NCBI GenBank assembly: GCA_028711115.1
Contig: JAQTSV010000001.1
Span: 838,032 to 902,031 of the forward strand
Length of the DNA stretch: 64,000 bases
Origin: Candidatus Omnitrophota bacterium
Lineage (GTDB): Bacteria > Omnitrophota > Gorgyraeia > Velamenicoccales > JABMQK01
Reading direction: 5' to 3'
Part shown: in pieces, positions 43,374-64,000 of the stretch
Layout of the letters: each line of letters opens with the position of its first letter
Numbering within the stretch: position 1 is the first letter of the stretch
Position numbers and translations under genes: made by a program
The notes under the pieces: model-generated
What the model was told of the DNA's origin: nothing
Database searches by the model: none
The model's input: the letters and a program-made list of their open reading frames with translations, nothing else

Positions 43374-43383
43374 AGCTAAGTTG

Positions 43384-44472
43384 CTATTCCTTTCTATTGG
43401 TTGGTATTACCGCATGTCTCTTTGTCAGTTTATTAAAATCTTCTTCAAGAATCCCCACGTCATTAATAAATTTATCCATTGCCTTTGGCCTTTTACCATC
43501 AAGTGTTTTAACTAAACGCAGCGCTTCTTTCCTGGTTATCAATCCATCGCGCACATCTTTGCTTGCTTGAAATGTTGTCCTTCCTAAATTGCGTTTAATA
43601 AATTTCTGCCAATCCCTCACTGACTCATACGGACAGTCTACCTTATCCCAGTCAACATAAGTTCCTTCAACTTTATTATGTTTCCATCCCAGTTCTTTGG
43701 TAATAATTTCCACATGTTTTCTTTGATCCCAGGGTTCGTAATTTCCTAGATAAATTGCTTTTAATTTAAAGTTCCCTTCGGGCCAAACCATAGGCAACAA
43801 GTCTGATATTGCATATTCCTTAGGTAAGGCCATTTCCGGTTTGATTCCTGCCTGAAAAACTTTTTGATAATGTTCCTCATCTTGTTCCTCAATGTCTTCA
43901 AGCTTATAAGCACCTTCCGTCTGGTATTCAGCTGTGGGTTCTCCCCATATCTGCAGAGGAATATCCCATTGTTTTGAAATGCGGGCAGGGAACGTACCTA
44001 CTCCGTTGTGACAATGCCAACAAAAATCACCCATTATCCCAGTTGTTTTTTTACAGAGTGCGTTCCGTAAACCGTTACCGATACTAAACCTTAAATGGTC
44101 ACAATCCAAGATCTTGGGAATTTCCATAAGATTCCATTCTGCTTCAGGAGATAAAGTGAAGCTGTGATCGAAAGTAACAACCAGAGGCTTCATTTTATAT
44201 TTCCTTACCATGGCCCAAAGAGTATAAACCGTATCCTTGCCTCCGCTATAACCTACAATGCAATTATATTTATTATTTCTTTTTTTAGCATACCTACGGA
44301 ATTTGTGCAAAATTTTATCCAGAATTTTCTGGCGTTCTTTCCAATTGATTTTATTCTTTTTCTTCATAAATTCACTGCACAGACTACAGACACCATCTTC
44401 ATCAAATGATATACCTGACCATGTTTCCGGCATAACACATTTTGTGCACCTTTTTAATGTATTCTTATTCAT
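43384..44472 (-). CDS. N-acetyl sugar amidotransferase (WbuX/PseA/WbpG family, PP-loop ATPase)
   Basis: N-terminal Zn ribbon 'CTKCVMP...GVCSLC', PP-loop 'VGYSGGKDTVY' and 'FCWHCH'. Confidence 0.75.
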   Translation of the reverse strand: MNKNTLKRCTKCVMPETWSGISFDEDGVCSLCSEFMKKKNKINWKERQKILDKILHKFRRYAKKRNNKYNCIVGYSGGKDTVYTLWAMVRKYKMKPLVVTFDHSFTLSPEAEWNLMEIPKILDCDHLRFSIGNGLRNALCKKTTGIMGDFCWHCHNGVGTFPARISKQWDIPLQIWGEPTAEYQTEGAYKLEDIEEQDEEHYQKVFQAGIKPEMALPKEYAISDLLPMVWPEGNFKLKAIYLGNYEPWDQRKHVEIITKELGWKHNKVEGTYVDWDKVDCPYESVRDWQKFIKRNLGRTTFQASKDVRDGLITRKEALRLVKTLDGKRPKAMDKFINDVGILEEDFNKLTKRHAVIPTNRKE

Positions 44473-44497
44473 TTTTACTTCTTGCTCCCATTTTTAA

Positions 44498-45808
44498 TTA
44501 CGCTATCCTTCTAAAACCTGAGTGACAAACAGGAATCTTTGAATATTTTTTGATTTTATTTTTTCTTATAACATTGGCAATAAAACCAAAGGCGTCATCA
44601 ACTGAGTTTAAATAATCTCTAACATTATTTATTTTATGTCCATAAGAAGCGTAAAATGACGTTGTAGCCAAAAATCCCTTTTCAAGCATTAATCTGGTAA
44701 ATAAAGTTTTTAAAATCAAGGGGTCTTTGTAGTTGAAAGTAAAATTAGTTAAAGGATAAATACCCGATATCGTTATGTTTAAATTATGTTTTTCTGCAAG
44801 TTTTTTCCAATTAATTTGTATTTCTTTGCCTATTCTGCTGAGATAATCCGGCACATCATTCTTTTTGAGTTTATTTATTGTAGCTAACGCTGCAGTGGGT
44901 CCGATTCTTTCTGTCCAGTATGTGCTGCTGATAAAAGTATCTTGTGCAGCTTGCATTATTTCTTTTCTTCCTATTATTGCAGCCATGGGATAGCCGTTAC
45001 TAATCGCCTTTGCAAATACGCACATATCCGGATAAACTTGGAATTTCAGATGTGCTCCGCCTATATGTAAACGCCAGCCAGATGTAATTTCGTCAAAAAT
45101 AAGAACAATATTCAATTTTTTGGTTACTTTTCTTATAGTTTCTAAAAAGCCTTTTTTAGGATAGTAACTTCTAATGGGCTCCATAACTACGGCTGCTATT
45201 TTATTTTTATTTGCTTTGATTAATTTCAGAAATCCTTCCGTGTCATTATAATTAAAAGGAATTGATGTATTGCGTAATTTTCTGGGCACACCTTTTGGTT
45301 GCAAGCCGGGCAGAAGGTGCCCGTCTAAAGATTTATCATTTGCTAAGTTTGAAGCTAAATACCAATCATGCCAACCATGATAGCCACAAAATAATATTAA
45401 ATCTTTATCAGTTTTGGCTCTGGCTATTCTTACGGCAATTGCCATGGCTTCACCTCCGCTGCGTGCATATCTCGCCATATCTGCCCACGGATGAATTTTA
45501 CATAATTCCTTGGCAAGTTCTACTTCTTCGGGGCAGTTTAAGGTAGCCATAGAGCCTTTATCTATAGCTTTTTTTATTTTATTATCAACGTCTTCATCGG
45601 CATAGCCCAATATGCAACTGCCAACACCCATGCTGCTCATATCGATATATTTGTTACCATCCAAATCCCATATCTCGCAACCTTTGGCTTTCTCATAATA
45701 AGCCGGCCATAAATTTGGTAGAAACATTTCTGGCCTCTTGGATAAAAGCTGGGTTCCGCCAGGTATTATCTTCTTAGCCTCTTTATAAAGATTTTGTGAT
45801 TTACCCAT
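44498..45808 (-). CDS. Class III PLP aminotransferase (glutamate-1-semialdehyde-aminomutase-like)
   Basis: 'RYARSGGEAMAIAVRIARAKT', 'FCGYHGWHDWY' and 'LIFDEITSGWR'. Confidence 0.75.
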   Translation of the reverse strand: MGKSQNLYKEAKKIIPGGTQLLSKRPEMFLPNLWPAYYEKAKGCEIWDLDGNKYIDMSSMGVGSCILGYADEDVDNKIKKAIDKGSMATLNCPEEVELAKELCKIHPWADMARYARSGGEAMAIAVRIARAKTDKDLILFCGYHGWHDWYLASNLANDKSLDGHLLPGLQPKGVPRKLRNTSIPFNYNDTEGFLKLIKANKNKIAAVVMEPIRSYYPKKGFLETIRKVTKKLNIVLIFDEITSGWRLHIGGAHLKFQVYPDMCVFAKAISNGYPMAAIIGRKEIMQAAQDTFISSTYWTERIGPTAALATINKLKKNDVPDYLSRIGKEIQINWKKLAEKHNLNITISGIYPLTNFTFNYKDPLILKTLFTRLMLEKGFLATTSFYASYGHKINNVRDYLNSVDDAFGFIANVIRKNKIKKYSKIPVCHSGFRRIA

Positions 45809-46588
45809 TTATTTATTCCTTTGTTTAGTACCTAGTATCTTATCCTCTTTTAAAGATTTCAAATAGCCTTCATTTCTTATAATGTTTTTATTCAATTCTT
45901 CTAATTCCGGATTAAGCTTTAAGAATTTCAGAATATCTCCCATATCAAAATTCGGGTTAATTGGATACAGCGATTCCAGTATGGTTTTTATCAATTTGAA
46001 ATCTGCTTCTGTATCTAAAGTCCATCTTTTTTTAGAAAGATTTTCTTTATTCTTAAAATTGATTAATTTAAATTTCTCTGGGTGCTTTTTTAAATATGGC
46101 GTGACGTGTTCTCTCTCTGATAAAAGACTTGAATTTTTCCAGGCATATTCCAAAGCATCAAAGCTAAACACTTCCACATCTTCTCCGTCGGGAAATGTTT
46201 CTTCTAAAGTATTGGAGCAATAATCTGCTTTGTTTTTAAAATAACAATGAACAACATCACTAATTATCCCTGGGTCTAGTAAAGGACAATCAGCTGTAAT
46301 TCTTGCTATATGCTGTATTTTAAATAATTTTGCTGCCTGATAATATCTGTCTAAAACATCGTCTTCAGATCCACGGTATAATTTTATATTTAGCCTACTG
46401 ACTAAATTAGCTATTGGTAAATCGCTTTCTTTTGTTGTAGTGGCCACGACTATATCTTCTATAGCTTTGGATTTCTTTACTCTTTCTACGGCATATTCCA
46501 ATATAGTTTTATCCATAACTTTTAATAACACCTTACCTGGTAGTCTGATAGCGCCAAATCTTGCTTGAATAATAGCGTGTGCTTTCAT
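45809..46588 (-). CDS. SpsF-type cytidylyltransferase (CMP-sugar-acid synthetase family)
   Basis: 'AIIQARFGAIRLPGKVLL', 'VVATT', 'RGSEDDVLDRY' and 'ARITADCPLLDP'. I chose the start at ATG 46588, which forms an ATGA overlap with the upstream stop. The track start is 46594. Confidence 0.7.
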   Translation of the reverse strand: MKAHAIIQARFGAIRLPGKVLLKVMDKTILEYAVERVKKSKAIEDIVVATTTKESDLPIANLVSRLNIKLYRGSEDDVLDRYYQAAKLFKIQHIARITADCPLLDPGIISDVVHCYFKNKADYCSNTLEETFPDGEDVEVFSFDALEYAWKNSSLLSEREHVTPYLKKHPEKFKLINFKNKENLSKKRWTLDTEADFKLIKTILESLYPINPNFDMGDILKFLKLNPELEELNKNIIRNEGYLKSLKEDKILGTKQRNK

Positions 46589-47484
46589 TTCCATTTATTA
46601 GGAATAATCACTTCTTCGTAGTCTAATTTTAGGGATTCCAATAAATCATAGATATTCTTTGTTTTATCTAGGTATTCAAAAGAATCTATGTTTTGTCTTA
46701 GTTGTTCTACAGAATCTACACCGATAATTACCTTATCTAAGAATGGATTTAATAAAACAAAACACAGACATAAAGCAAACAGAGGTATGTTATTATCTAT
46801 TGAAATACGACGTAATTTATTTATATTGTCTTTGGCTAATTGAAAATCCTTATTTATGATATCGGTTTCCAAGAAAAACAAACCCTGCAGGAAAACCGAT
46901 CTTGAATGGATTTCTGCTTTCATATTTTTTAGAACCGAGAAATATGTCTTAAACCTTTGATCAAAAATATTGTAGGGAATTTGGACAATGTCAAATTTAA
47001 TATTATTATTCAATAAATATTCCAATTCACTTACGTTATATAAAGATACGCCTATTTTTTCTACCAGGCCATCTTGTTTTAGAGATTCCAATATGCCCCA
47101 TATTTCTTTATTTTCTATTAAATTGTCAAATTTATGGATTAAATATCCGTATAGGGCTGGCTGTTTTAGATTATTGAGTGTTTTATGAAAATATTTTTCA
47201 ACATCTGAAATGCCTTTATCGCTTAGGTTAGGCAATTTAGAAATGATTTTAAAATAATTGCCGCTCTGGGCAATAAAATCGCCTATTAACTGCTCGCTGT
47301 TTCCATATGAGTAAGCTGTGTCTAAAGCATTTATTCCTTTTCCAAAAGCATATTCTAAAATATTGAAGATATCTTTTGGAGAAGGCTTTGGAGAACGATT
47401 TGCTATTCCGTATTTCATTCCAAATTGTGCTGTTCCTAAGACAATTCTTTTTATTGGCATAAAATTCTCTTTATATTTGAACAA
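46585..47484 (-). CDS. Aldo/keto reductase
   Basis: 'IVLGTAQFGMKYG', 'INALDTAYSYGNSE' and 'GVSLYN'. An ATG at 47460 (MPIKRIVLG) may be the real start. Confidence 0.7.
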   Translation of the reverse strand: MFKYKENFMPIKRIVLGTAQFGMKYGIANRSPKPSPKDIFNILEYAFGKGINALDTAYSYGNSEQLIGDFIAQSGNYFKIISKLPNLSDKGISDVEKYFHKTLNNLKQPALYGYLIHKFDNLIENKEIWGILESLKQDGLVEKIGVSLYNVSELEYLLNNNIKFDIVQIPYNIFDQRFKTYFSVLKNMKAEIHSRSVFLQGLFFLETDIINKDFQLAKDNINKLRRISIDNNIPLFALCLCFVLLNPFLDKVIIGVDSVEQLRQNIDSFEYLDKTKNIYDLLESLKLDYEEVIIPNKWK

Positions 47485-48590
47485 ATATACTCGACTTCTC
47501 TATTTGTTAAACCGGGAAACAAAGGTATGGTTATAGCTTTAGAATAGTATCTTTCTGCTTTCGGGTAATCACCTTTCTTATATCCAAGATTCTTCCTGTA
47601 ATATGGTTGTAAGTGAACCGGGATATAGTGCACCTGGATTCCTATATGATATTTTTTTAACTTATCAAATACAAATCTCCTCACAGAGGCATTTTTTAAT
47701 CTAATGCAATAAATATGCCAAGATGATTTTACGTAGTTTCTTTCTTTTGGCAAAATAATAGTACTGATTTGCGATAAATTACGGTCGTATAATTTTACAA
47801 TTTTCCTTTTTTTGTCTATAAATTTATCGATTTTACCTAGCTGGCTTATTCCTAAAGCACATTGAAAGTCGGTTATGCGATAATTGAAACCCAAATGCTG
47901 CATTTCATAATACCAACTACCAGTTTTCTTAATTTTTTTCCTGTCTTTAGCGATGCCGTGATTCCTGAGCAATAAAAGCCTTTTATATAAATCTTTTCTA
48001 TTCGTAAGAACGGCTCCTCCCTCGCCAGTTGTTATAGATTTTACGGGATGAAAACTAAATACAGCCATGTCAGAATATTTGCAGGAACCAATTTTTGAAT
48101 CTCTGTACTCTGCCCCTAATGCATGTGCGGCGTCTTCTATAACAATTAAATTGTGTTTCTTCGCAATACTCTGGATTCTTTTTAAATCGCAAGGATGACC
48201 AGCAAAGTGAACAGGAATTATTGCCTTAGAATTTTTAGTAATCTTATCAATTATTTCTTCTGGATCTATATTTTGCGTATCCTCTTGAATATCTGTAAAT
48301 ACAGGTTTTCCACCGCAATATAAAATACAATTCGCAGAAGCCACAAAAGTCATAGGCGAAGTAATAACTTCATCGCCTTTTTTTATTCCCGCAGCAAGGC
48401 AGGCAAGATGTAATCCGGCTGTTCCATTAGCTACTGCTACAGCGTATTTAGCTCCGGTGTATTTAGAAAGCGCGCATTCAAATTCATTAATTCTTGGCCC
48501 TTGGGTAATCCAATCGGAACGAAGCGTCTTAACAACCTGCCTGATATCGCTTTCATCAATACATTGGCGACTGTAGGGTATTAATTTCAT
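47451..48590 (-). CDS. pseC: UDP-4-amino-4,6-dideoxy-N-acetyl-beta-L-altrosamine transaminase (DegT/PseC type)
   Basis: 'IPYSRQCIDESDIRQVVKTLRSDWITQGPRINEFE' and the PLP-lysine region 'FSFHPVKSITTGEGG'. It follows pseB. Confidence 0.8.
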   Translation of the reverse strand: MKLIPYSRQCIDESDIRQVVKTLRSDWITQGPRINEFECALSKYTGAKYAVAVANGTAGLHLACLAAGIKKGDEVITSPMTFVASANCILYCGGKPVFTDIQEDTQNIDPEEIIDKITKNSKAIIPVHFAGHPCDLKRIQSIAKKHNLIVIEDAAHALGAEYRDSKIGSCKYSDMAVFSFHPVKSITTGEGGAVLTNRKDLYKRLLLLRNHGIAKDRKKIKKTGSWYYEMQHLGFNYRITDFQCALGISQLGKIDKFIDKKRKIVKLYDRNLSQISTIILPKERNYVKSSWHIYCIRLKNASVRRFVFDKLKKYHIGIQVHYIPVHLQPYYRKNLGYKKGDYPKAERYYSKAITIPLFPGLTNREVEYICSNIKRILCQ

Positions 48591-49564
48591 ATGCTCTCGA
48601 TCATCCTTTCAAGCTCTTTTTTTGTAAGCCACAGATTATTATTGTCGCTTGTATATTTAAAACCTTCTGCCAAATGTTTTCCCTTCTTAAAATTATCCAC
48701 TCTCCACCAAGGATGTTCCGGCTCTACAATAAAATAATCAGCGAATTTTAATGTATGCCTGGATTCATCTTTGGTTATCAAACATTCATGAATTTTCTCG
48801 CCCGGGCGGATTCCTATATATCTAACTTTACATTTAGGGGCGATTGTTTTTGCCAAATCTACAATCTTCATACTGGGAATCCTGGGAACGAAAATCTCTC
48901 CTCCATGCATCATTCCAATAGATTTTATTACAAATTCCACGCCCTGTTCTAAAGTCATCCAAAAACGTGTCATTTCTTTATCAGTGATGGTAATAGTCCC
49001 TATTTTTTTCTGTTCTTTTAATAAAGGCACAATACTTCCTCTGGACGCTACGACGTTACCGTATCTTGTACAAGAAAGTTGTGTTTGCCTTTGTTTTCCT
49101 ACATAAGAATTTGCGGCGACGAATAATTTTTCCATGCACATTTTAGTAGCGCCATACAGATTCACCGGGTTTACTGCCTTATCGCTGCTTATAGCCATCA
49201 CTTTTTCAATATTATGATCTATCGCCGCATCAATTACATTTTGCGCGCCCATAATATTAGTCTTTATAGCTTCGAAAGGATTATATTCACAAAGGGGGAC
49301 TTGTTTTAAGGCTGCAGCGTGGACAACTATATGTGCGCCGTCCATTGCACGTTTTAATCTGTCTTTATCGCGCACATCTCCGATGAAAAATCTCAAACCT
49401 TTAACATTATTAAATTTTTTCTCCATTTCCCACTGTTTTAATTCATCGCGGCTGAAAATTCTGATGACTTTCGGCTTATGTTTTTTAATCATAATTTCGG
49501 TAAATTTCTGGCCAAAGGAACCTGTACCGCCAGTCAATAAAATAATCTTCTTGGACCAATCCAT
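48587..49564 (-). CDS. pseB: UDP-N-acetylglucosamine 4,6-dehydratase (inverting), PseB/FlaA1 type
   Basis: 'KIILLTGGTGSFGQKF' and 'YGATKMCMEKLF' (YxxxK). The track start (49615) is a TTG extension. ATG at 49564 has 'AGAGAGGA' 6-7 nt upstream. Confidence 0.8.
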   Translation of the reverse strand: MDWSKKIILLTGGTGSFGQKFTEIMIKKHKPKVIRIFSRDELKQWEMEKKFNNVKGLRFFIGDVRDKDRLKRAMDGAHIVVHAAALKQVPLCEYNPFEAIKTNIMGAQNVIDAAIDHNIEKVMAISSDKAVNPVNLYGATKMCMEKLFVAANSYVGKQRQTQLSCTRYGNVVASRGSIVPLLKEQKKIGTITITDKEMTRFWMTLEQGVEFVIKSIGMMHGGEIFVPRIPSMKIVDLAKTIAPKCKVRYIGIRPGEKIHECLITKDESRHTLKFADYFIVEPEHPWWRVDNFKKGKHLAEGFKYTSDNNNLWLTKKELERMIESI

Positions 49565-49589
49565 TGTTATCCTCTCTTTCTGATTTAAT

Positions 49590-50234
49590 CTAAATACAGT
49601 TCTTAATATATTCAAATACTCCCCTCATATTCTTAAAGCTGCTCTTTTTTGGTATATTGGGTAAATTGGAATTGTCATCTTTTATCCTAGCGATAAATTT
49701 CACGCCTATTTCTTTTGCAGCATTAAAATCATTGACAGAATCACCGATAAAAACAACTTCGGAGGTATTATAATTATTTTTTCTTAGTATATTAGTTATC
49801 AAATCTGTTTTTTTATCCGGAGAACCGTATATTTCCGTAAAGTATTTTTCTAACTTTCTGCGTTTTATTATTTCTTTAATTTCTTTTTTCGGCGTCCCCG
49901 AAATTACAAACATTTCGTAACGACCGTAACATCTATCTAAAAGTTCTTGCGCACCTTCTACTAAAGGAGAGCGGACCACCTTATCTACTACTAATTCACT
50001 AAAACGCTTACCCAGTTGATTGAATTGAGCTTCACTTAATTTTTCTTTAATGATATTCTGGTAAATAAACCTAAATTTATCATAACGAGATATACCGCCA
50101 TTATTAATATGATATTCTATTATTGCCTTTAAGCATTGTGGATAATCTTTAAATAATGTTCTGAAAGCCCCTGTCTTTATTTCTACAGATTCAGCAATTA
50201 CTCCATCAAAATCAAAAATAATACTTTTAATCAT
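49590..50234 (-). CDS. HAD-superfamily phosphatase
   Basis: Motif I 'IIFDFDGVIAES' and motif IV 'FIGDSVNDFNAA'. Confidence 0.75.
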   Translation of the reverse strand: MIKSIIFDFDGVIAESVEIKTGAFRTLFKDYPQCLKAIIEYHINNGGISRYDKFRFIYQNIIKEKLSEAQFNQLGKRFSELVVDKVVRSPLVEGAQELLDRCYGRYEMFVISGTPKKEIKEIIKRRKLEKYFTEIYGSPDKKTDLITNILRKNNYNTSEVVFIGDSVNDFNAAKEIGVKFIARIKDDNSNLPNIPKKSSFKNMRGVFEYIKNCI

Positions 50235-55075: not shown

Positions 55076-55645
55076 TTATATTTCCTTCGTCTTTATAAAA
55101 CTAATAAGTTTTTTTATACAAGTTTTTAAATCATATTTTTCCGTATCTAATACCAAATCCGCATTTTTAGGCATCTGATAGGGTACATTTTTATCAATAC
55201 CGATAAAATTTTCTATCTTTCCGGATAAGGCTTTTTTATACAGCCCCTTGGGGTCTCTTTTAATAACAGTTCCAAGCGAAGCTTTACAATAAATCAAATA
55301 TAGCTGCTCTCCAATTGTGCTTTTTACCTGCTGCCTGGACTCCTCAAACGGAGAAATAACTGTTACAAAAATATAATCATATTTTTTCTTATTGATTTCT
55401 TGTTTACAAATCTCAGCTATTATCCTATTGTTTTTCTTAATGTGTTTTGGTGTAAATTTCAGGTGTCTATTCAGTTTTTGTCTTACAATATCGCCATCAT
55501 AAATTTTGATTTTTTTCTTTATTTTTGAAAGTGATTTCTTAGTTTCATTGGCAATGGTTGTTTTTCCAGAACCAGAAAGACCTGTAAACCAAAAAACTAG
55601 AGTTTTTTTATTCAACAAAGACCTTCCCTCCTTCTTTAATTTCAT
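55076..55645 (-). CDS. cysC: Adenylyl-sulfate (APS) kinase
   Basis: P-loop 'FWFTGLSGSGKTTIA' and 'DGDIVRQKL'. An 'AAGGAGG' followed 7 nt later by TTG at 55618 is an alternative start. Confidence 0.85.
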   Translation of the reverse strand: MKLKKEGRSLLNKKTLVFWFTGLSGSGKTTIANETKKSLSKIKKKIKIYDGDIVRQKLNRHLKFTPKHIKKNNRIIAEICKQEINKKKYDYIFVTVISPFEESRQQVKSTIGEQLYLIYCKASLGTVIKRDPKGLYKKALSGKIENFIGIDKNVPYQMPKNADLVLDTEKYDLKTCIKKLISFIKTKEI

Positions 55646-57788
55646 TTAGAACAAAGTCCGAAACTTCTTTTCTCATAAACCAGTCGGGAGGAGCTTTTTT
55701 AAAACCAAACATTTCTCTCGCATGTGTACCGCTTATCTCTGATATATTTTTATTATTATGTTTGCACTGCTCAACGTATTTACAGCATTTCTTGCAATAA
55801 TGCATTTCATTAAAAAATATCGGGACTATTCCAATATCTCCGAGATAATTGAAAAGCTTATGGGCATCGTCTTGTTTATAGTGGTTACCTACTCCCGTAT
55901 GATCTCTGCCAACAATAAAATGGCTGCATCCGAAATTCTTTCTGCACAAAGCCGTGAATACCGCTTCCCTTGGCCCGGAATATCTTGAATAATTCTGAAA
56001 AGCAGCCAAAAAAACCTTACCTTTAGGATAATACTTTTCTATCATTAGTTCATAGCTTCTCAGGATTACATCTGCCGTATAATCGCCTTTCTTTTTCGGG
56101 CCTATTACAGGATGGATAAAAAGACCGTCGCAGTGATATTTTTCAAAAGCAAGCATTTGAATATATTCATGAACACGATGAGCCACATTTCTTGTATGAA
56201 AACCAACCACCCTGTGCCATCCTTTATTTTCAAAAATTAATCTTGCTTGTCTCGGTGTTATTTCAAAATGTTTATATTTTGAAGGGAGGCGTTCGATTAA
56301 ATCTACTTTTCCGCTGAGAAAATATTCTCCTCTTCTTTTCAATTGCTGAACTCCGTAATGACTTTCATCATTGGTTCTAAAAGTTTCTCTTGCCATTTTA
56401 TCTAAATCGTAAGTATAAATTTCTTCTAAATTCAGTATAGAGAATGCTTTATTAGTGTTTCTCAAAACCAATGCAATTTTATTTCCGGGTTTAAATTTAC
56501 CAATATATTTTCTATCTACTTGTAAGAAAATTGGTAACGGCCAAACAACTCCGTTGGGGAGTTTGTAATTTTTGAGCACAGAATTAATTTCTTCCTTATT
56601 CATAAAACCCTGCAAAGGAGAAAAGGCGCCAATTGCAATCTGTTCAGCATCCAATAAAACAGTTTCATCTACGATTAATGTTTTATATTTATTTATTTCT
56701 TTGATATTTGGTTCCCTGACAACTCTGTTTACAAGAGTACCTCCATGCGGTTCTATTAATACGTATGAATCACTATCTTGTAAATTATCGAGAGAGTGAT
56801 TACGAGAAAAATCGAGGCATTGTTTAATCATCTTAGAAATCATCACTGTACAATTTATAGGATATGCTCCGATTGCGGTTTCAGCAGCAAGTACTAAGCC
56901 ATCTGCGCCATCGAGTAAAGTATTTATAACGTCATTTGCTTCTGCTCTCGTAGGTTTTTTGCTCCTAACCATTGACTCAAGTAAATTTGTAGCCACATAT
57001 ACAGGTATTTTCTTCTTATTTACCTTATTTATAATTAGTTTTTGAATGAGCGGTATTCTTTCTATAGGTTCTTCTCTGGAGAGATCTCCTCTGTCTATAA
57101 GTATAGAATCAGAAACGCTAATTATACCGTCGATATTCTTTACGCCTTCCCTATTTTCTATCTTGGAAATTATGTGAGCATTTTTTCCTAATTGACTACG
57201 GAAATATTCAACACTTTTTCTGTCAGAGGCAAATGACAAAGCAAAATATTGCAGACCGTGTTTTAGCCCGATCTTGATAGCTTCTTTATCTTTTTCAGAA
57301 ATCACTGGTAATTGTATATTTCTATCGACGGTTGCTGCTTTATTGCTTCCAATATAACCGTCAGCAACAACCCTTGCTGTTACGGAATCAAGATTCGTTT
57401 TAATAATTTGCAACAGCACAGATTCAAAGTCGATGCTAATCAAATCGCCAATCCTTAGTTCCCTGACAACAAAATTAGGGGTAAATGAAATCCTGCGAGA
57501 ATTACCGACTATATTTTTCTTTGTTATCTCAATCAAACTGTTTTCTTTTAAATAAACCTTATTATTTTCTACAAATCCGTTACGAATTTGGGCGCCTTCT
57601 GTATCAAGACACAATGGTTTATTCGTAAATCGCTTTATAGATAGTATTAAATTTTCCAAATCTTTTATTTCTGTATGAGAAAGGTTTAAACGAAAGATAT
57701 CCACCCCCAAAGAGTCCAATCTTAAAATAGTTCTTTCATCTATGGAAGAAGGACCAAGTGTACATAATATTTTTATCTTTTTTTTCAT
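55608..57788 (-). CDS. sat: Fusion protein: pyruvate-kinase-like catalytic barrel (about aa 1-335) joined to sulfate adenylyltransferase / ATP sulfurylase (about aa 340-726)
   Basis: PK half: 'KILCTLGPSS', 'FRLNLSHT', 'LDTEGAQIR', 'ISKIENREG', 'IDRGDLS', 'PTRAEANDV' and 'LAAETAIGAYP'. Sulfurylase half: 'EPHGGTLVNR', 'GAFSPLQGFM', 'GFHTRNVAHRVHEY', 'HPVIGPKKKGDY' and 'GPREAVFTALCRKNFGCSHFIVGRDHTGVG'. The frame is continuous. Confidence 0.8.
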   Translation of the reverse strand: MKKKIKILCTLGPSSIDERTILRLDSLGVDIFRLNLSHTEIKDLENLILSIKRFTNKPLCLDTEGAQIRNGFVENNKVYLKENSLIEITKKNIVGNSRRISFTPNFVVRELRIGDLISIDFESVLLQIIKTNLDSVTARVVADGYIGSNKAATVDRNIQLPVISEKDKEAIKIGLKHGLQYFALSFASDRKSVEYFRSQLGKNAHIISKIENREGVKNIDGIISVSDSILIDRGDLSREEPIERIPLIQKLIINKVNKKKIPVYVATNLLESMVRSKKPTRAEANDVINTLLDGADGLVLAAETAIGAYPINCTVMISKMIKQCLDFSRNHSLDNLQDSDSYVLIEPHGGTLVNRVVREPNIKEINKYKTLIVDETVLLDAEQIAIGAFSPLQGFMNKEEINSVLKNYKLPNGVVWPLPIFLQVDRKYIGKFKPGNKIALVLRNTNKAFSILNLEEIYTYDLDKMARETFRTNDESHYGVQQLKRRGEYFLSGKVDLIERLPSKYKHFEITPRQARLIFENKGWHRVVGFHTRNVAHRVHEYIQMLAFEKYHCDGLFIHPVIGPKKKGDYTADVILRSYELMIEKYYPKGKVFLAAFQNYSRYSGPREAVFTALCRKNFGCSHFIVGRDHTGVGNHYKQDDAHKLFNYLGDIGIVPIFFNEMHYCKKCCKYVEQCKHNNKNISEISGTHAREMFGFKKAPPDWFMRKEVSDFVLNEIKEGGKVFVE

Positions 57789-57809: not shown

Positions 57810-58778
57810 TTAAAACAATTTTCCTTTTTCATGAAGCGATGCTAAACGCATCATCAATTTAAACATTTTAGGAGAAGCCATTTTTTTAATGAACAGCATC
57901 TTTTTCTTTCTTTCTAATGGGTCTATTTTTCTATTACAATTTTCCCTGGCGAGAATCGTTGACATCGATTCAGAAGGAATTGTGTTTAAAAATAATCCCG
58001 CCTTCTTTACAACAGCCCATGAATCTTCTATTAAATCTTCATAAGTAACAAACAAAATATTTTTTTTATGTTTAAGCGGAAGAAGGCCGTAAGCATTTTG
58101 TGATATTTCAGTTATGATTTCTATGCTTTTAATTATGCGATCCATTCTTGATAATTTTATATATTCATCACTCCAGTTATATGCATACCAAGGAATAGTC
58201 TTGTTATTTATATTAACACAAGGGGATAAGTAAAGCGGATCGGAAATTTCCCTACCCCCAAAACCTCTAAGATACCAAGAATACATGATATCTATCGGGT
58301 GTCTTATAATATGAATCATTTTGAAATCAGGAAACGATTTAAAGAATATATTTATGCAAGGTAGGACTTCGTGCGTTACAAATACGGATATTCTTTTATC
58401 TTTATTTATTGCCTTAACGGTCTCTTTGCGATCTTTATCTTGGCTAAAAGTTTTTAATAAATACCTTCCGAGATCGGGGTATTTGAATATGGAGGAACCA
58501 TCGTTATAACGAAAGTTTAAATTCCTACCTATTCCTATATTATATACCCATTGGTCTACCATTATCTGCAACAGAGAAATTGCAGTATCTTCCCTAATAG
58601 CTCCTAATTTTTCTAAATAAGGGATTATTTCTATTAAATCAACAGCCTGAAAATGTTCTGTGCTCTTCAACCCGTCAATAATCCGTCCCAGGAAGAACTT
58701 TCCAGAACGAGTAATACCATCTAATATAACTAATTTCTTGACTAAAAGGTTTTTAGTGGCGACTTTAATTTCCTGCAT
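57810..58778 (-). CDS. Sulfotransferase-family protein
   Basis: 5'-PSB-like 'LDGITRSGKFFLGRI' and 3'-PB-like 'IHIIRHPIDIMYSW'. It lies directly upstream of sat and cysC. Confidence 0.55.
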   Translation of the reverse strand: MQEIKVATKNLLVKKLVILDGITRSGKFFLGRIIDGLKSTEHFQAVDLIEIIPYLEKLGAIREDTAISLLQIMVDQWVYNIGIGRNLNFRYNDGSSIFKYPDLGRYLLKTFSQDKDRKETVKAINKDKRISVFVTHEVLPCINIFFKSFPDFKMIHIIRHPIDIMYSWYLRGFGGREISDPLYLSPCVNINNKTIPWYAYNWSDEYIKLSRMDRIIKSIEIITEISQNAYGLLPLKHKKNILFVTYEDLIEDSWAVVKKAGLFLNTIPSESMSTILARENCNRKIDPLERKKKMLFIKKMASPKMFKLMMRLASLHEKGKLF

Positions 58779-58785: not shown

Positions 58786-58792
58786 CCTCCTT
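58786..58792 (-). promoter_or_regulatory. Shine-Dalgarno sequence AAGGAGG for the sulfotransferase gene
   Basis: The reverse complement of 58786-58792 is AAGGAGG, 7 nt upstream of the ATG at 58778. Confidence 0.6.
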
Positions 58793-58904
58793 AGAAGGTT
58801 TAAATAAATTTAATACGGCTCGAATTTGAGCTTCCAAATGCCGTCTACTTTCCCAAGAACATCCTTGTTGGCAAATTTATCGAGTACATCATCAAATTCT
58901 TTTC
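58792..58904 (-). pseudogene. Left copy of a 113-nt direct repeat: orphan 3' remnant (last 31 codons plus stop) of a WbuX-type amidotransferase gene, with its downstream spacer
   Basis: Hand alignment to 60352-60464 gives 109/113 identical, with mismatches at 58840, 58843, 58845 and 58853. It translates to 'KEFDDVLDKFANKDVLGKVDGIWKLKFEPY*', against 'KEFDDVLDKFANKDVLEKVNGIWKLKFEPY*' in the intact gene. There is no start codon. Confidence 0.85.
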
Positions 58905-58935: not shown

Positions 58936-59730
58936 TTACTTAAATGACTTAAAGAAATCGATATCCCAACTCGCCATATCTATGCTACATTTCTGCATTG
59001 TTGATCGTGCATCTGTAAGACCATCTTCAATAAAATTAAACAAATTAGCGGTAGATACAGCATCTGCTTTGCCTTGTAATATCCCGTCAGTAAAATGATT
59101 GAATTTCCCTATTCCGCCAGAGGCAATTAAAGGAACCATTGAGACCTCGGATATTTTTTTAATTATATCTAAGTCGAGGCCTTCTCCGGTACCATCGTTA
59201 TCCATAGAAGTTAAATAAATCTCTCCACAATTTAGTCTCTCGGCCTTTTTTACATGCTCTTCCACAGTTAAGCCTGTAGAATGACTGCCGTCGTGTATAA
59301 AAGTTTCCGTGTGTCTATCGTGTTTCTTATAATCAATGGAGGCCACTATGCACTGGCTGCCGAATGTCTTAATAAACGAAATTACAAGTTCAGGATTAGT
59401 TATAACTGGGGTATTGATGACTAATTTATCAGCTCCAGCGTCAAGTATCATATAGGCATCTTCTATTGAACGTATACCTCCTCCGGCAGCAATCGGCATA
59501 AAGCACCTTTTGCTTAACTCTATAAGGTTACGTGAAAATTCCTTAACGTCTTTTTTCTCTCTCTCCACATTAAAAACAATTAGCTCATCGATAGAAAAGG
59601 CTATGGCGTCAAAATTATAGCATTCCCTTATCCAATCAATATTCCCTACCGACTGCAGAGAGAAATTCCTACTTAGCATATAAACGCCATTTTGCATTAA
59701 CAATGTAAAGATTAATCGTTTCTTTAGCAT
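58936..59730 (-). CDS. hisF: HisF-like cyclase subunit (WbuZ-type glycosyl-amidation partner)
   Basis: 'PIAAGGGIRSIEDA', 'GADKLVINT' and 'PLIASGGIGKFNH'. It lies in a glycan locus beside hisH-like and WbuX-like genes, so it is probably not the histidine-pathway copy. Confidence 0.8.
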   Translation of the reverse strand: MLKKRLIFTLLMQNGVYMLSRNFSLQSVGNIDWIRECYNFDAIAFSIDELIVFNVEREKKDVKEFSRNLIELSKRCFMPIAAGGGIRSIEDAYMILDAGADKLVINTPVITNPELVISFIKTFGSQCIVASIDYKKHDRHTETFIHDGSHSTGLTVEEHVKKAERLNCGEIYLTSMDNDGTGEGLDLDIIKKISEVSMVPLIASGGIGKFNHFTDGILQGKADAVSTANLFNFIEDGLTDARSTMQKCSIDMASWDIDFFKSFK

Positions 59731-59734: not shown

Positions 59735-60352
59735 TTACAGTTGGCAAAAATTCCTTAATACTACGAGTCCGTTACTTAAACTCTTTTCTGGATGAAACTG
59801 CGTGCCAAAGATATTCTTGTATTGAACACTTGCAATAAACCTCTCTCCGTAATTAGCCCATGAAGAACTATATTTCTCCTGTTCAAGACAAACCATCCTG
59901 TAGCTGTGCACAAAATAAAAATCCGCGCTTTCTCCTAACCCCTTAAATAAATTAACCGGGGTGCCCTGAAAATAAACCCTGTTAAAACCGATATGTGGAA
60001 TCTTAATACCCAATACTTGTGCCGGAAATCGTTTTGCTGCAGCTGGAATCCAGCCAAAACCTTTGGTCAACCCGTCTTCCTCCCCTTCATCAGCAAAAAG
60101 TTGCATCCCAAGACAAATACCTAAAATATAGTTCTTTTTTATAAGCACAGCTTCATTTATTGCATCAAAAAGGCCTCTATTTTTTATGTTATCCATTGCC
60201 ATGCGAAATGAGCCCACTCCCGGAAGTATTAATTTTTCGCTCTCTAAAATCTCAGCGGCAGAATTCACGATTCGGCAATCAACTTTTATAAAATTAAGGG
60301 CATTATACACAGAACGAATATTGCCCATCCCGTAATTGATTATAGAGACCAT
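59735..60352 (-). CDS. hisH: HisH-like glutamine amidotransferase subunit (WbuY-type)
   Basis: 'MVSIINYGMGNIRSV', 'LPGVGSF', the nucleophile 'GICLGMQL' and 'QFHPEKS'. The track start (60397) is a TTG extension into the upstream gene. I use ATG at 60352. Confidence 0.8.
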   Translation of the reverse strand: MVSIINYGMGNIRSVYNALNFIKVDCRIVNSAAEILESEKLILPGVGSFRMAMDNIKNRGLFDAINEAVLIKKNYILGICLGMQLFADEGEEDGLTKGFGWIPAAAKRFPAQVLGIKIPHIGFNRVYFQGTPVNLFKGLGESADFYFVHSYRMVCLEQEKYSSSWANYGERFIASVQYKNIFGTQFHPEKSLSNGLVVLRNFCQL

Positions 60353-60464
60353 AGAAGGTTTAAATAAATTTAATACGGCTCGAATTTGAGCTTCCAAATA
60401 CCATTTACTTTCTCAAGAACATCCTTGTTGGCAAATTTATCGAGTACATCATCAAATTCTTTTC
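60352..60464 (-). repeat. Right copy of the 113-nt direct repeat: hisH start codon, 17-nt spacer and the 3' end of the intact amidotransferase gene
   Basis: See 58792-58904. The offset between copies is exactly 1560 nt. Confidence 0.85.
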
Positions 60465-61542
60465 TCGTTATCCGGAAATACTCCACAAATTTACCTATTA
60501 ATTGTTCCGGATATTCCCCATCATACCTTCTGACAAGAGCTAAGGCCTGCTTCCTGTCTAGGGCACCCCTACGCACATCAATGCAGGCATCGGAAGTAGC
60601 CCTACCGAAACCAAATTTCAAAAACATAAGATACACGTGTAAATCCTGCAAATCGTCATCTAACTGCGCGAAGTTTGTATAAGTGCCGATACTTCGTGTT
60701 GGCAGCGTCTGAAAACCGCAATGCTTCTTAGCAAACAGATAATGCTCATACGGATTCCAGTCTTCAAAATACGACCAATAAGCCATAAGCACGCCACTTT
60801 TATCCAATACCTCTTGGCTCGGGAACCTCCACCACTTGACATCATGATCAGAGATTCCCATTTTTCCCACAGCCCTGTCTGATTCACAACCGCTAAAATA
60901 ATAAGTCACCGTTTCCGCCCTGTCCATAAAGTATTTTTTATCAAAATTTCCAGAGCCACCGTATTCTGCCTCTCCCTGTTCGCCGTACATTAAAAAAGGA
61001 ATGTTGAGTTTTATGCTGAATTCAACGACAATCGTAGTAATTCCGGAAATAAAAGGCTCTTTCGGCTGGCCTTCTTCAATCAATCCTACCTTAGCCAACT
61101 TTCTGTATGATTCCGGGTCAGGGCTTACCATGATATGATCAAACCCCGCTTTGATGAAGTTCTCTAAGTTTCGTTTGCCTATTTCTGTGGGCATTTGCGA
61201 CGCAACGGTTATGCATAAAGGATGCATCCCCAATTCGTGTTTCATCTTCCAAGCGACGTAGCTGCTATCTTTGCCGCCGCTACCAGGAACAATAACATCA
61301 AAACTTCCGTCTTTTCTGCGGTATTTATCGCACAGCTTTTCCACTTCATTCCACCGCTTTTTCCAGTCAGTATTCTTTCTTTTGTATTCAGCGTGCAGGC
61401 AGGCATTACATACTCCTTCTGAATTAAATACAATTCGTGGACGAGCGGATGGCGCCAAACAACTTTTACAATAAAACATTTTTCTTTCTTCTTTTTTTAA
61501 AACGATATCTTTACCATCGCCCTGATTATTTAAAGTTTCCAT
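60370..61542 (-). CDS. N-acetyl sugar amidotransferase (WbuX/PseA family, PP-loop)
   Basis: 'CKSCLAP...GVCNAC' Zn ribbon and 'VPGSGGKDSSY'. It lies directly upstream of the hisH/hisF homologues. Confidence 0.8.
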   Translation of the reverse strand: METLNNQGDGKDIVLKKEERKMFYCKSCLAPSARPRIVFNSEGVCNACLHAEYKRKNTDWKKRWNEVEKLCDKYRRKDGSFDVIVPGSGGKDSSYVAWKMKHELGMHPLCITVASQMPTEIGKRNLENFIKAGFDHIMVSPDPESYRKLAKVGLIEEGQPKEPFISGITTIVVEFSIKLNIPFLMYGEQGEAEYGGSGNFDKKYFMDRAETVTYYFSGCESDRAVGKMGISDHDVKWWRFPSQEVLDKSGVLMAYWSYFEDWNPYEHYLFAKKHCGFQTLPTRSIGTYTNFAQLDDDLQDLHVYLMFLKFGFGRATSDACIDVRRGALDRKQALALVRRYDGEYPEQLIGKFVEYFRITRKEFDDVLDKFANKDVLEKVNGIWKLKFEPY

Positions 61543-61556
61543 AGATATGGCTCCTT

Positions 61557-62945
61557 TTACGTTTGTCTGAAGCCTCTAAAATCCCTGTTTTTATGTAAAT
61601 ATAAATCTTTTGTCTGGTTAAACATTGACTTTATCTTCTTTTGAAAATAATTTCTAAGCAATCTGGTATTTGCCTGCAATAAACATCTATGAAATTCGTC
61701 ATCGCTCATATTGGTAAAATTAACCGACAGCAAATCTGAATTCACGTGTTTATTTTCGTAAAAGTCCTCACAGTCTTTCAATAATCCTTTCTTAATTGCA
61801 TAGTAATATAATGGTGAACCGGGATACGGCGTAACAGGCCGAATTGTTCTGACCTGGGCTCCATCATCGTATTTCAGAAGAAACTCCACTCCTTTTTCTA
61901 AGGTTTCCCTGGTTTCACCGATATTGCCAAAGATAATATTGTAACCCGGGCTAATTCCTATTTTTAACGTTGCCTCAATTCCCGAGATTATCTGTTTTGT
62001 AGTCAGCGTTTTATTCATATTCTTAAGAATTTGGTCATCCATGGCTTCTATTCCATAATTTATGAATACACAGCCGGATTCTTTCATTAATCTTAAAACA
62101 TCTTCACGGGCATAGTTTAATCTGCCATTGCAAGACCACTTAATTTTTAAATTCGCTCTGATAAAATCTCTGCATAATTCTTCGGTTCTCGCTATGGAAG
62201 ACATCAAAAGTTCATCCCCAAAAGCAATATAAGTAATACCGTAATCTTTCTGTAACAATTTGATTTCTTCTATAATCGCTTCATTTTTTCTTGGGCGAAA
62301 ACCTTCATCCATTCGATAACAAAAATTACAATTAAAAGGGCATCCCCTGCCGGAAAGCAGCCGCATTACAAAATCTGTTGTTTCACAATGTGGCATCCGC
62401 AATAATCTGTAATATTCCATGGGGAAAAGTTCGTAAGCCGGTCGTGCGATGCTATCAACGTCTTCTATCAGAGGCTGGCGTTCGTTAATTACGACTTTAT
62501 TTCCGTCACGATAAGCAATCCCTTTGACTTTAGATAATGATTTGTGTTTGCTGAGTGAATCCATCAAATTCAGAATAGTTATTTCGCCTTCTCCGATAAC
62601 AACTGCATCGGCCCCGGTCTTTTTAATAAAATATTCTGGTTCGGGAGCAGGGCCATGGCCGCCTATCACATAAAAAGGTCTATTTTTTGAATTGTTAATT
62701 GCTGTAGATAGTGACAACAACTTTCTATATTGGAAATATCCCCCAATGATGCTAACTCCCACTACGTCAAATTTGTTCTTATTTAAATATTCGGTAAGAT
62801 GCTCATCAGGATAATGATTAAAATCCTGGCTATATATCTCTACCTCTATTCCTTCTTTGCGTAAAACTGAAGCAATGTAAGCCAACCCCATCGGAAAATC
62901 ATGGATATACGATTCGTTATCATAAACAACTAATAATACTCTCAT
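61557..62945 (-). CDS. Cobalamin-binding-type (class B) radical SAM enzyme
   Basis: 'MRVLLVVYD...FPMGLAYIASVLRKEGIEVEIY' and the cluster 'GRGCPFNCNFC'. Confidence 0.75.
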   Translation of the reverse strand: MRVLLVVYDNESYIHDFPMGLAYIASVLRKEGIEVEIYSQDFNHYPDEHLTEYLNKNKFDVVGVSIIGGYFQYRKLLSLSTAINNSKNRPFYVIGGHGPAPEPEYFIKKTGADAVVIGEGEITILNLMDSLSKHKSLSKVKGIAYRDGNKVVINERQPLIEDVDSIARPAYELFPMEYYRLLRMPHCETTDFVMRLLSGRGCPFNCNFCYRMDEGFRPRKNEAIIEEIKLLQKDYGITYIAFGDELLMSSIARTEELCRDFIRANLKIKWSCNGRLNYAREDVLRLMKESGCVFINYGIEAMDDQILKNMNKTLTTKQIISGIEATLKIGISPGYNIIFGNIGETRETLEKGVEFLLKYDDGAQVRTIRPVTPYPGSPLYYYAIKKGLLKDCEDFYENKHVNSDLLSVNFTNMSDDEFHRCLLQANTRLLRNYFQKKIKSMFNQTKDLYLHKNRDFRGFRQT

Positions 62946-62970
62946 ATTTTTCTCTCTATTGTTCCGGCTT

Positions 62971-64000
62971 TTATTCTACTTGGTAACGCAGCTTCCACTT
63001 TCCATCAATTTTTTCCCATAAATGAGGTGATTTGAACTTATCGCATAATTCGAAGAACCGTTCTTCTTCCATGCTGATATATCCCATAACTTCTTTAAAA
63101 TATTTCTTAGGAAATTCTCCGTCAAAACGATGTACCAATGAAACCCCCTCTTGTCTGGTTAAATGCTTATTCCTAATCTCTTGTGAAGCATCATAGGAAG
63201 CCCTGCCAAGACCGAATTTAATGTAAGTGGTATAGTAATGTAATCCGTCTATACGGTCATCTAAACTATTATATTTTGAATACGTCCCTTCTGAACGCTC
63301 AGGATTGGCTTGAAATCCGCTATGCTCAACAGAGTAATAATAGGCTTCCTGCGGAGTCCACTTCAAATAATATCCTAAATAATGTACCTCTATTTTTGAA
63401 CGTTCCAAATCTTCAACGCTTGCCGGTAAATAAGTAAGGATATCATTGAGGGTTAAATTATATTTGCCCATAAGCTCCTGGACACAAACACCGGAAAGAT
63501 ATGTTTTTGAAAAATTCTCCATAGTAAAGTATGATTTATTACGTAACGAAGTGACATTATCAGCAATAGGATTTCCGTATTCTGCTTCGTTCTCACCATA
63601 AAAAATTAACGGGATACCGTATTTCGATGCAATCTTTGGTGCTAAGTTTTTCTGACCCAATATAAACGGCTGAAATGGATGGAGCAAATTCTCAATCGCT
63701 AATCTTGTCAGCAGAGCGTGTACCTTTGCATTGTAATTAAATGAAATATTATCGAATCCGCCTTTGTAAATCCAATTGCGGAAGTTTTTCCAGCCGATAT
63801 CAGTATAAATCAGAGGCGGCCAAGTAACTGTTAAAGGATGCATATTGTATTTGTATTTCAGGACATGTGCGGCGTAAACACTATCTTTACCACCACTGCC
63901 AGGGACTATACAATCATAATGCCCGTCATTACGCCGATGTTTATCTAATAGCTGGAGCAATTCTTCTTCTCTTTTTTTCCAGTTTATCTCTTCTTTTTGT
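62971..64000 (-). CDS. N-acetyl sugar amidotransferase paralogue (WbuX/PseA family), with its 5' end beyond the right window edge
   Basis: 'VPGSGGKDSVY'. The track start at 63960 is a TTG. The frame stays open to nt 64000 ('QKEEINWKKREEELLQLLDKHRR' parallels 'TDWKKRWNEVEKLCDKYRR' of the paralogue), and the expected Zn-ribbon N-terminus is missing. Confidence 0.75.
   Translation of the reverse strand, partial: QKEEINWKKREEELLQLLDKHRRNDGHYDCIVPGSGGKDSVYAAHVLKYKYNMHPLTVTWPPLIYTDIGWKNFRNWIYKGGFDNISFNYNAKVHALLTRLAIENLLHPFQPFILGQKNLAPKIASKYGIPLIFYGENEAEYGNPIADNVTSLRNKSYFTMENFSKTYLSGVCVQELMGKYNLTLNDILTYLPASVEDLERSKIEVHYLGYYLKWTPQEAYYYSVEHSGFQANPERSEGTYSKYNSLDDRIDGLHYYTTYIKFGLGRASYDASQEIRNKHLTRQEGVSLVHRFDGEFPKKYFKEVMGYISMEEERFFELCDKFKSPHLWEKIDGKWKLRYQVE

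Follow-up and report, generated by a model that had tools for sequence, protein, structure and literature searches.

Introduction

Among the closest known relatives of the genes studied here are the triads WbuX-WbuY-WbuZ of Escherichia coli O145, WbpG-HisH2-HisF2 of Pseudomonas aeruginosa O5 and AglX-AglY-AglZ of Methanococcus maripaludis, in which the gene for an N-acetyl sugar amidotransferase (NASAT) reportedly precedes those for a HisH-type glutaminase and a HisF-type barrel protein. The O-antigen of Legionella pneumophila is said to be a polymer of 5-acetimidoyl-7-acetyl-legionaminic acid, and Campylobacter jejuni reportedly employs PseA for pseudaminic and PtmG (Cj1324) for legionaminic acid, with no hisH or hisF genes beside them. 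Here, we analyze three NASAT genes and an adjoining gene for a radical S-adenosylmethionine (SAM) protein in a stretch of 64,000 nucleotides from a Candidatus Omnitrophota bacterium (assembly GCA_028711115.1, contig JAQTSV010000001.1, positions 838,032 to 902,031), which as a whole is referred to as the window.

The NASAT family, whose members WbpG and WbuX make ManNAc3NAmA and FucNAm, is defined by a PP-loop of the sequence SGGxDS and a Zn-binding tetracysteine motif, CxxCxn[GN]xCxxC (PMC10607449). In the SugarBase preprint, an acetimidoyl form is attributed to PtmG and such amidotransferases are suggested to act on the cytidine monophosphate (CMP)-activated sugar. The occurrence of several NASAT paralogues per genome is already documented, the alignment figure published along with the Legionella NASAT structure 8WEX containing two Campylobacter and three Vibrio vulnificus sequences (PMC10607449), and a NASAT together with HisH/HisF-like partners is a known surface-glycan module.

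Results

Gene order at the window edge

All long open reading frames (ORFs) of the window lie on the minus strand. Its last part, 60370-64000, carries the genes for NASAT_B (60370..61542, 390 amino acids) and NASAT_C (62971..64000) on either side of a gene for a B12-binding (class B) radical SAM protein (61557..62945, 462 amino acids). NASAT_B is followed by genes for a WbuY-like class-I glutaminase, HisH1 (59735..60352), and a WbuZ-like, HisF-type barrel protein, HisF1 (58936..59730), while the third amidotransferase, NASAT_A (43384..44472, 362 amino acids), is encoded at a distance. An earlier interpretation made from the letters and their ORFs (the sequence-only reading) had it that the three paralogues share this single glutaminase/barrel pair, and a tblastn search with the HisH1 and HisF1 proteins indeed retrieves no other hisH or hisF within the window. 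The window end at position 64000, however, cuts through the NASAT_C gene and leaves its first 179 nt, including the Zn-ribbon, outside.

A protein identical to NASAT_B is encoded on contig JAQUPK010000001.1 (983,760 nt; assembly GCA_028716625.1, a Candidatus Omnitrophica metagenome-assembled genome (MAG)). The locus taken from this contig, L001, is identical to the window in 13,631 of 13,631 overlapping bases and reaches 7.5 kb beyond base 64000; coordinates past that point are window-equivalents taken from L001, and statements on hisH and hisF genes cover the window and L001 together. L001 completes the NASAT_C gene to position 64179 (402 amino acids) and, upstream of it on the same contig and the same minus strand, contains a second pair that begins 163 nt past the window end: the gene for HisH2 (64163-64879), which overlaps that for NASAT_C by 17 nt, and the gene for HisF2 (64872-65747). 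On one strand, the full order thus reads HisF2-HisH2-NASAT_C-radical SAM-NASAT_B-HisH1-HisF1, the two NASAT sets forming mirror images around the single B12-radical SAM gene. Genes of the cassette overlap or are separated by gaps of 4-25 nt, and promoter- and terminator-like sites between 57500 and 64000 occur in the numbers found in shuffled sequence.

The apparent oddity of three paralogues with one pair is an artefact of the window edge, the glutaminase pair having seemed alone because the window ends before the second one. We consider it likely that 60370-64000 forms the end, with the tailoring genes, of a nonulosonic-acid (NulO) operon of the legionaminic-acid type, and that the segment holds two complete, evolutionarily separate glutamine-dependent NASAT systems. 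Together with an orphan NASAT_A and a radical SAM enzyme that acts independently of the amidotransferases, this is probably the best explanation of the locus as a whole.

A common HisH/HisF pair from which all three NASATs draw ammonia would agree with the single pair inside the window, with the lack of a pair of its own within 14 kb of NASAT_A, and with two related loci, L022 (6474-12172) and L061 (3323-8774), where two NASATs of different clades flank the same radical SAM gene and a single HisF/HisH pair is found (within 8 kb on either side in L022 and within 6-8 kb in L061). But further hisHF pairs next to the window had been named in the sequence-only reading as grounds for refutation, the pair just past the window end already refutes such a model for NASAT_B and NASAT_C at this locus, and the two pairs belong to different lineages, each of which tracks its own NASAT clade (see below). 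Sharing among all three is thus most improbable here, even though two NASATs do appear to make do with one pair in L022 and L061 over the distances given.

The three amidotransferases

All three proteins exceed the curated cut-off (203.2 bits) of the NCBIfam family TIGR03573 (WbuX), by which a NASAT is defined here, with 269.3 bits for NASAT_A, 349.7 bits for NASAT_B and 314.1 bits for the part of NASAT_C inside the window, rising to 355.8 bits at full length. No Pfam family matches any of them in a Pfam scan, and the assignment needed NCBIfam. The PP-loop reads SGGKDS in NASAT_B (residue 88) and NASAT_C and SGGKDT, with a conservative Ser-to-Thr exchange, in NASAT_A; the tetracysteine motif spans residues 9-32 in NASAT_A, 25-48 in NASAT_B and 18-56 in NASAT_C, the last being read from L001. 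The proposal of three WbuX-family paralogues is borne out in this respect, and PP-loop and Zn-ribbon are intact in every one of them.

Pairwise comparison, which had been recommended along with that proposal, yields 36% identity between NASAT_B and NASAT_C and 27% between NASAT_A and either of the two, as would be expected of separate lineages rather than of close copies. Clades were assigned by combining the family hidden Markov model, the 8WEX structure and clade-wise identities among about 20 NASATs of related loci. Against 8WEX, NASAT_C scores 543 bits over residues 2-401, NASAT_B 233 bits and NASAT_A 88 bits. NASAT_C and the 8WEX protein have in common a long insert between the two cysteine pairs, a feature described as missing from other family members (PMC10607449). 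As judged from sequence, NASAT_C is an orthologue of the crystallized Legionella enzyme.

Orthologues of NASAT_C in related loci (57-70% identity) are encoded in the order HisF-HisH-NASAT, and the same order is found for a further clade, D, the members of which are 44-51% identical to NASAT_C and 37-42% identical to NASAT_B. The three orthologues of NASAT_B examined (60-63% identity) all occur in the order NASAT-HisH-HisF, often followed by sulfotransferase genes: those of L083 and L084 reside inside legionaminic-type NulO clusters, that of L082 has genes for sulfotransferases and sulfate activation around it, and in L083 the order NASAT-HisH-HisF-sulfotransferase is the same as in the window. 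For NASAT_A, too, three orthologues were examined (67-74% identity), which adjoin NeuB and GNAT genes in pseudaminic-type clusters; hisH and hisF are absent within 8 kb in two of these three contexts, and NASAT_A-type proteins are also found naturally fused to NeuB and to GNAT domains (P0304, P0334). In the window, NASAT_A is an orphan inside a pseudaminic-acid sub-cluster (36110..49615, minus strand).

Glutaminases and HisF-like barrels

Both glutaminases pass the HisH family test (TIGR01855, cut-off 105.4 bits) with 212.7 bits for HisH1 and 179.3 bits for HisH2, and both keep the GICLGMQ motif with the cysteine nucleophile as well as the HPE motif. For HisH1, the mechanically derived ORF begins with TTG at 60397 (59735-60397), while the 205-residue gene call of the source implies an ATG at 60352. 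WbuZ (TIGR03572, cut-off 299.7 bits) is the top family for HisF1 and HisF2, though neither reaches its cut-off (230.7 and 274.4 bits, respectively), nor that of AglZ/HisF2 (NF038364, cut-off 310 bits; 165.1 and 208.8 bits) or of true HisF (TIGR00735, cut-off 294.55 bits; 172 and 272.5 bits). HisF1 and HisF2 are WbuZ-like by context and not equivalog-level members of that family. Both pairs adjoin or overlap their NASAT gene, an adjacency that is kept in all three loci with NASAT_B orthologues read and in at least 15 loci with NASATs of clades C and D.

The HisF-like proteins were aligned to HisF from Thermotoga maritima, the reference sequence being entered by hand. The catalytic acid and base of HisF are D11 and D130 (PMC11350729). 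In HisF1, D11 is replaced by leucine and D130 is kept, together with R5, E46, K99 and E167; in HisF2, D11 is kept and position 130 is occupied by glutamate. This distinction extends to the related loci. F1-type barrels, encoded in the order NASAT-HisH-HisF in the window, L082, L083 and L084, have leucine at position 11 and aspartate at position 130, whereas F2-type barrels, encoded in the order HisF-HisH-NASAT in L001 and 16 related loci, have aspartate at position 11 and glutamate or glutamine at position 130. The HisF of L087, which lies beside a more distant NASAT in the order NASAT-HisH-HisF and stands outside the alignment, begins with KRIIPVFLLKG and, by eye, likewise has leucine at position 11. 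R5, E46 and E167 are kept in all aligned HisF-like proteins and K99 in all except two, which have arginine; these four residues we take to be the ammonia gate of HisF.

HisH1 and HisH2 are 35% and HisF1 and HisF2 41% identical. The two pairs are old, separate lineages, in each of which a different catalytic aspartate has been lost. F1-type pairs accompany the NASAT_B type in four of four loci, and F2-type pairs accompany clades C and D in every one of the 15 loci with both a NASAT and a HisF. In the accepted view, as given in the description of TIGR03572, barrels of this kind pass ammonia on and do not run the cyclase reaction, and the loss of one catalytic aspartate per lineage fits such a role, in which the HisF-like proteins would serve as channels. 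Docking specificity may underlie the pattern of a single HisF/HisH pair for each NASAT lineage, F1 going with clade B and F2 being shared by clades C and D in L022 and L061, so that the number of pairs would follow docking compatibility rather than the number of NASATs.

Two other origins of the pairs were considered and rejected. A recent duplication of the two triads is ruled out by the identities of their HisH, HisF and NASAT components (35%, 41% and, for NASAT_B and NASAT_C, 36%). That HisF2 and HisH2 are the housekeeping pair of histidine biosynthesis was dismissed on context, the HisF-HisH-NASAT cassette being present in at least 15 loci from many phyla, with D130 replaced in every one of these cassettes.

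A direct repeat lies between hisF1 and the neighboring sulfotransferase gene. Positions 58789..58904 (minus strand) copy 60349-60464 over about 113 nt with 96% identity and comprise the final 95 nt of the NASAT_B gene along with its stop codon and the spacer of 18 nt, placed between the hisF1 stop and the ribosome-binding site of the sulfotransferase gene; similarity between the copies ends where the next gene has its start codon. The fragment of the NASAT_B 3' end is also picked up by tblastn, and in the orthologous locus L083 the gap at this place measures only 48 nt. The repeat looks like a scar left when the hisH1-hisF1 unit (1,560 nt) took part in a duplication or insertion.

The radical SAM protein

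The protein encoded between NASAT_B and NASAT_C has an N-terminal B12-binding domain (PF02310, 62.2 bits) followed by a Radical_SAM domain (PF04055, 87.5 bits) and an invariant Cx3Cx2C motif (C202/C206/C209). It is a class B radical SAM protein, as the sequence-only reading had recognized, with cobalamin binding as a prediction for which the match to AprD4 described below calls for caution. All 23 hits among the NCBIfam equivalogs are far below their cut-offs (best, BchE, 143.4 versus 481 bits, and the ladderane-lipid radical SAM protein, 143 versus 360 bits), and no named class B family, such as BchE, HpnJ, PhpK, BzaD or AprD4, is reached.

Homologues are abundant and tightly conserved: 4,875 of 8,000 scored candidates have E-values of 1e-30 or lower, the best 120 are 71-79% identical to the window protein and nearly all exactly 462 residues long, and a scan with one genome per species returned 80 loci with 63-76% identity. 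The family is thus 63-79% identical across more than 15 phyla, including Omnitrophota, Nitrospirota, Planctomycetota, Desulfobacterota, Bacillota, Campylobacterota, Pseudomonadota and candidate phyla, with Methanolobus and Promethearchaeota MAGs as archaeal carriers. Among the carriers in culture are Geomonas silvestris, Ectothiorhodospira magna, Heliobacterium chlorum, Desulfoscipio geothermicus, Marinospirillum perlucidum and Wukongibacter baidiensis.

Neighbors within 7 kb were clustered for the 80 loci, several family identities being read from representative sequences. Most frequent are CMP-transferases (48 loci), NeuB (41), PtmE-like proteins (39), DegT aminotransferases (34), NeuC (32), short-chain dehydrogenase/reductase (SDR) dehydratases (28) and PglD-type acetyltransferases (22), followed by HisH (17), HisF (16) and NASAT (14). 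Where at least 5 kb could be read on both sides (45 loci), NulO genes of the legionaminic type are present in 39, HisH/HisF in 11 and NASATs in nine. The radical SAM protein therefore belongs to the legionaminic-type pathway and not to the NASATs, and it is probably an independent tailoring enzyme of that pathway that has no amidotransferase partner.

The sequence-only reading had offered, as an alternative, an ATP-dependent nitrogen chemistry that is coupled to a radical step. In such a scheme, the radical SAM protein and the flanking NASATs would act on the same group, for example by C-alkylation of an N-acetyl or acetamidino group or by making or using the amidine. The gene order is in its favor: NASAT_C, the radical SAM protein and NASAT_B are encoded on the same strand and only 14-25 nt apart, the radical SAM gene stands between two NASATs in three arrangements (the window, L022 and L061) and between hisH2 and a NASAT in L013 (6368-10623), and a NASAT ORF lies no more than 300 nt away in seven of the 16 loci that have one. 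Coupling is nevertheless hard to reconcile with the 36 of 45 loci in which no NASAT is nearby, given that NulO core genes are present in 39, and with the much stronger conservation of the radical SAM protein (63-79%) compared to the neighboring NASATs (44-70%), a difference that fits a substrate independent of amidination. Coupled chemistry is thus distinctly unlikely, and the claim is not supported by the distribution of the family. We take the closeness of NASATs to the radical SAM gene to mean that the end of the operon accommodates two tailoring modules, which brings us back to an independent enzyme of the legionaminic-type pathway.

An AlphaFold (AF2) model of the protein (predicted local distance difference test score, 87.3) superposes in Foldseek on TsrM, AprD4, MgmA, OxsB, CysS and TokK with E-values of 1e-16 to 1e-23. 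The highest TM-scores (0.73-0.75) were obtained with the aminoglycoside diol-dehydratase AprD4, and sequence identity to solved structures amounts to 15-21%. Naming the reaction by fold search was abandoned, methylases and non-methylating enzymes matching equally well; the modeled fold is equally compatible with methylation and with radical chemistry of other kinds. In the literature, we found no open-access paper in which radical SAM enzymes are connected with the biosynthesis of legionaminic or nonulosonic acids.

As a tentative and rather doubtful extension, the protein might found a laterally spread family that performs a radical step on legionaminic-type NulOs, such as C-methylation or an AprD4-like deoxygenation. 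In the present locus, the two triads might in addition amidinate both N5 and N7 of the product, which might be sulfated as well. If this were true, the outcome would be a doubly acetamidino NulO of a kind that we have not met in descriptions.

Surrounding pathways

Upstream of HisF2, genes are present for a NeuC-type hydrolyzing 2-epimerase, a formyltransferase-PglD/NeuD fusion, NeuB (TIGR03569, 453 bits), a CBS-nucleotidyltransferase resembling PtmE, a cytidylyltransferase and a PtmA-like SDR, which together constitute a legionaminic-type NulO pathway. NASAT_A, in turn, is surrounded by PseB (489 bits), PseC (520 bits) and PseI (468 bits), a PseG-like protein, PseH-like GNATs, a PIG-L deacetylase, two formyltransferase-like proteins, a cytidylyltransferase and an aminotransferase. 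The suggested use of the paralogues on different sugars or at different positions is in keeping with this context, NASAT_A being placed among PseB, PseC, the PseG-like protein and PseI, and NASAT_B and NASAT_C at the end of an operon for NeuC, NeuB, PtmE and CMP-transferase.

Downstream of HisF1 there follow, on the minus strand, a sulfotransferase gene (57810..58778; Pfam Sulfotransfer_1, E = 4e-15) and sulfate-activation genes for the supply of 3'-phosphoadenosine-5'-phosphosulfate (55076..57788, assigned by Pfam), namely a pyruvate-kinase-barrel/ATP-sulfurylase fusion (55608-57788) and an APS kinase (55076-55645). The fusion protein consists of 726 residues, with the pyruvate-kinase barrel at residues 3-312 followed by PUA_2 and ATP-sulfurylase domains, and a homologue of 43% identity is encoded near the same radical SAM gene in L025.

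The remainder of the window encodes an initiating sugar transferase, Wzx, seven glycosyltransferases, a KdsB-like cytidylyltransferase, seven class-I methyltransferases and three more B12-radical SAM paralogues; RmlD-like, GDP-mannose-dehydratase-like and NTP-transferase genes are found at 22951-25610. The window in its entirety forms a single large Wzx-type polysaccharide locus, which comprises at least two NulO pathways and runs past the window end.

These further sugar pathways are among the points that would favor another substrate for NASAT_B, which might act on an N-acetyl amino sugar elsewhere in the repeat unit, a hexosamine or hexosaminuronic acid, in the manner of WbpG and WbuX, and not on a NulO. 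The order NASAT-HisH-HisF is the one reported for wbuXYZ and wbpG-hisH2-hisF2. Acetimidoyl forms of uridine diphosphate-N-acetylhexosamine are reported in the SugarBase preprint. Two of the three NASAT_B orthologues examined are nonetheless found inside legionaminic-type clusters (L083, L084), and in L084 the gene directly follows that for CMP-transferase, with no other NASAT encoded in the 15 kb read. A hexosamine-type substrate is thus unlikely, and we prefer to place NASAT_B in the legionaminic-type pathway.

Several other genes of the locus deserve mention. The three additional B12-radical SAM paralogues are encoded at 3861-5363, 8571-11048 and 20155-21540, the second being an 825-residue protein that combines a B12-binding/radical SAM module with a second radical SAM/SPASM module. 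The PIG-L-type deacetylase and the two formyltransferase-like genes of the pseudaminic-type sub-cluster are located at 37595-38970 and 42351-43373, and the formyltransferase-PglD fusion of the upstream legionaminic-type operon at L001 positions 671-2152. Together, these genes resemble the route to free-amine and N-formyl NulOs that is laid out for Kuenenia in the SugarBase preprint. Two proteins of 657 (50958-52931) and 715 residues (52928-55075) match no Pfam domain; the first has a weak match to the BFO_1060 glycosyltransferase family, and a similar family of about 640 residues adjoins the radical SAM gene in six other loci. BFO_1060 we take to be a candidate NulO transferase of Tannerella, and both proteins may be NulO transferases. 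Finally, a 432-residue DUF4910/DUF2172/peptidase-M28-like protein is encoded in the pseudaminic-type sub-cluster (39934-41232), the same combination occurs two genes from the NASAT_A orthologue in L087, and the protein may be a conserved member of that pathway.

Discussion

A mechanism can be put forward from what is known of the family, NASATs being PP-loop ATP pyrophosphatases with a Zn-ribbon (PMC10607449). Each enzyme would use ATP to activate the N-acetyl carbonyl oxygen of a sugar, releasing AMP and pyrophosphate, and ammonia would then replace the activated oxygen, thus converting the N-acetyl into an acetamidino group. NASAT_B and NASAT_C would each obtain ammonia from glutamine hydrolysis by their own HisH-type glutaminase, with the HisF-type barrel, which no longer has both cyclase aspartates, carrying it onward. 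NASAT_C, as an orthologue of the Legionella enzyme, is likely to form the 5-acetimidoyl group of a legionaminic-type sugar, and the genetic context agrees with this assignment. NASAT_B would most likely modify a second N-acetyl group, at N7 of the same sugar or, less likely, on another amino sugar of the repeat unit. NASAT_A may act on a pseudaminic-type sugar, with ammonia that is either free or supplied by a glutaminase borrowed from another set.

Direct observation extends to the identities of the genes, their motifs and order, the split into lineages and the context statistics. Some points weigh against the proposed scheme. Substrates and modified positions are deduced from orthology to one single Legionella enzyme, for which there is a structure and no published assay. 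HisF1 and HisF2 fall below the curated cut-offs for WbuZ and AglZ/HisF2, the exchange of D130 for glutamate is conservative and does not prove loss of cyclase activity in HisF2, and the placement of the radical SAM gene between NASATs in three arrangements and next to one in L013 would allow for some link between the radical step and amidination.

As regards the three paralogues as originally posed, little changes: the genes are real and intact and the module is of a known, glycan-tailoring kind. Claims of only one partner that are made at a window edge need extension of the contig before they are believed. A useful by-product is the recognition of HisF-like partners in two lineages that have lost different aspartates and each keep to their own NASAT clade. 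The locus is an ordinary sugar-decoration cluster around one conserved radical SAM enzyme, and the uncharacterized family of this enzyme is the sole lead worth following. With 63-79% identity from Omnitrophota to Methanolobus and Heliobacterium and with representatives in cultured strains, it is clearly delimited and a testable candidate for some new step of NulO biosynthesis.

Among cobalamin-dependent radical SAM enzymes, TsrM, MgmA, CysS, TokK and OxsB share the fold predicted for the window protein, the B12-binding domain and the Cx3Cx2C motif. AprD4, a sugar diol-dehydratase that acts on an amino sugar, is of nearly the same length and gives the best TM-scores. From all of these solved class B enzymes the modeled protein differs by a sequence identity of only 15-21%, and no equivalog family is reached.

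NASAT_A resembles Campylobacter PseA, as far as context goes, in that no hisH or hisF adjoins its gene, which is the arrangement reported for Campylobacter. The present locus differs from the PseA/PtmG system of C. jejuni in having three paralogues, two of which possess glutaminase and channel genes of their own. NASAT_B-HisH1-HisF1 consists of the same three components as WbuX-WbuY-WbuZ, WbpG-HisH2-HisF2 and AglX-AglY-AglZ. Unlike in these systems, the likely substrate is a nonulosonic acid and not a hexosamine, two triads of different lineages stand side by side in opposite gene order, and both HisF-like proteins stay under the thresholds curated for WbuZ and AglZ/HisF2. The closest match is that between NASAT_C and LpNASAT from Legionella pneumophila (8WEX), which are alike over their full length including PP-loop, tetracysteine motif and long insert, and the legionaminic acid reported for the Legionella O-antigen fits the legionaminic-type context described here. 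What sets the Omnitrophota system apart from that of Legionella is an anaerobe-type locus in which the amidotransferase adjoins a B12-radical SAM gene and a second triad of another lineage.

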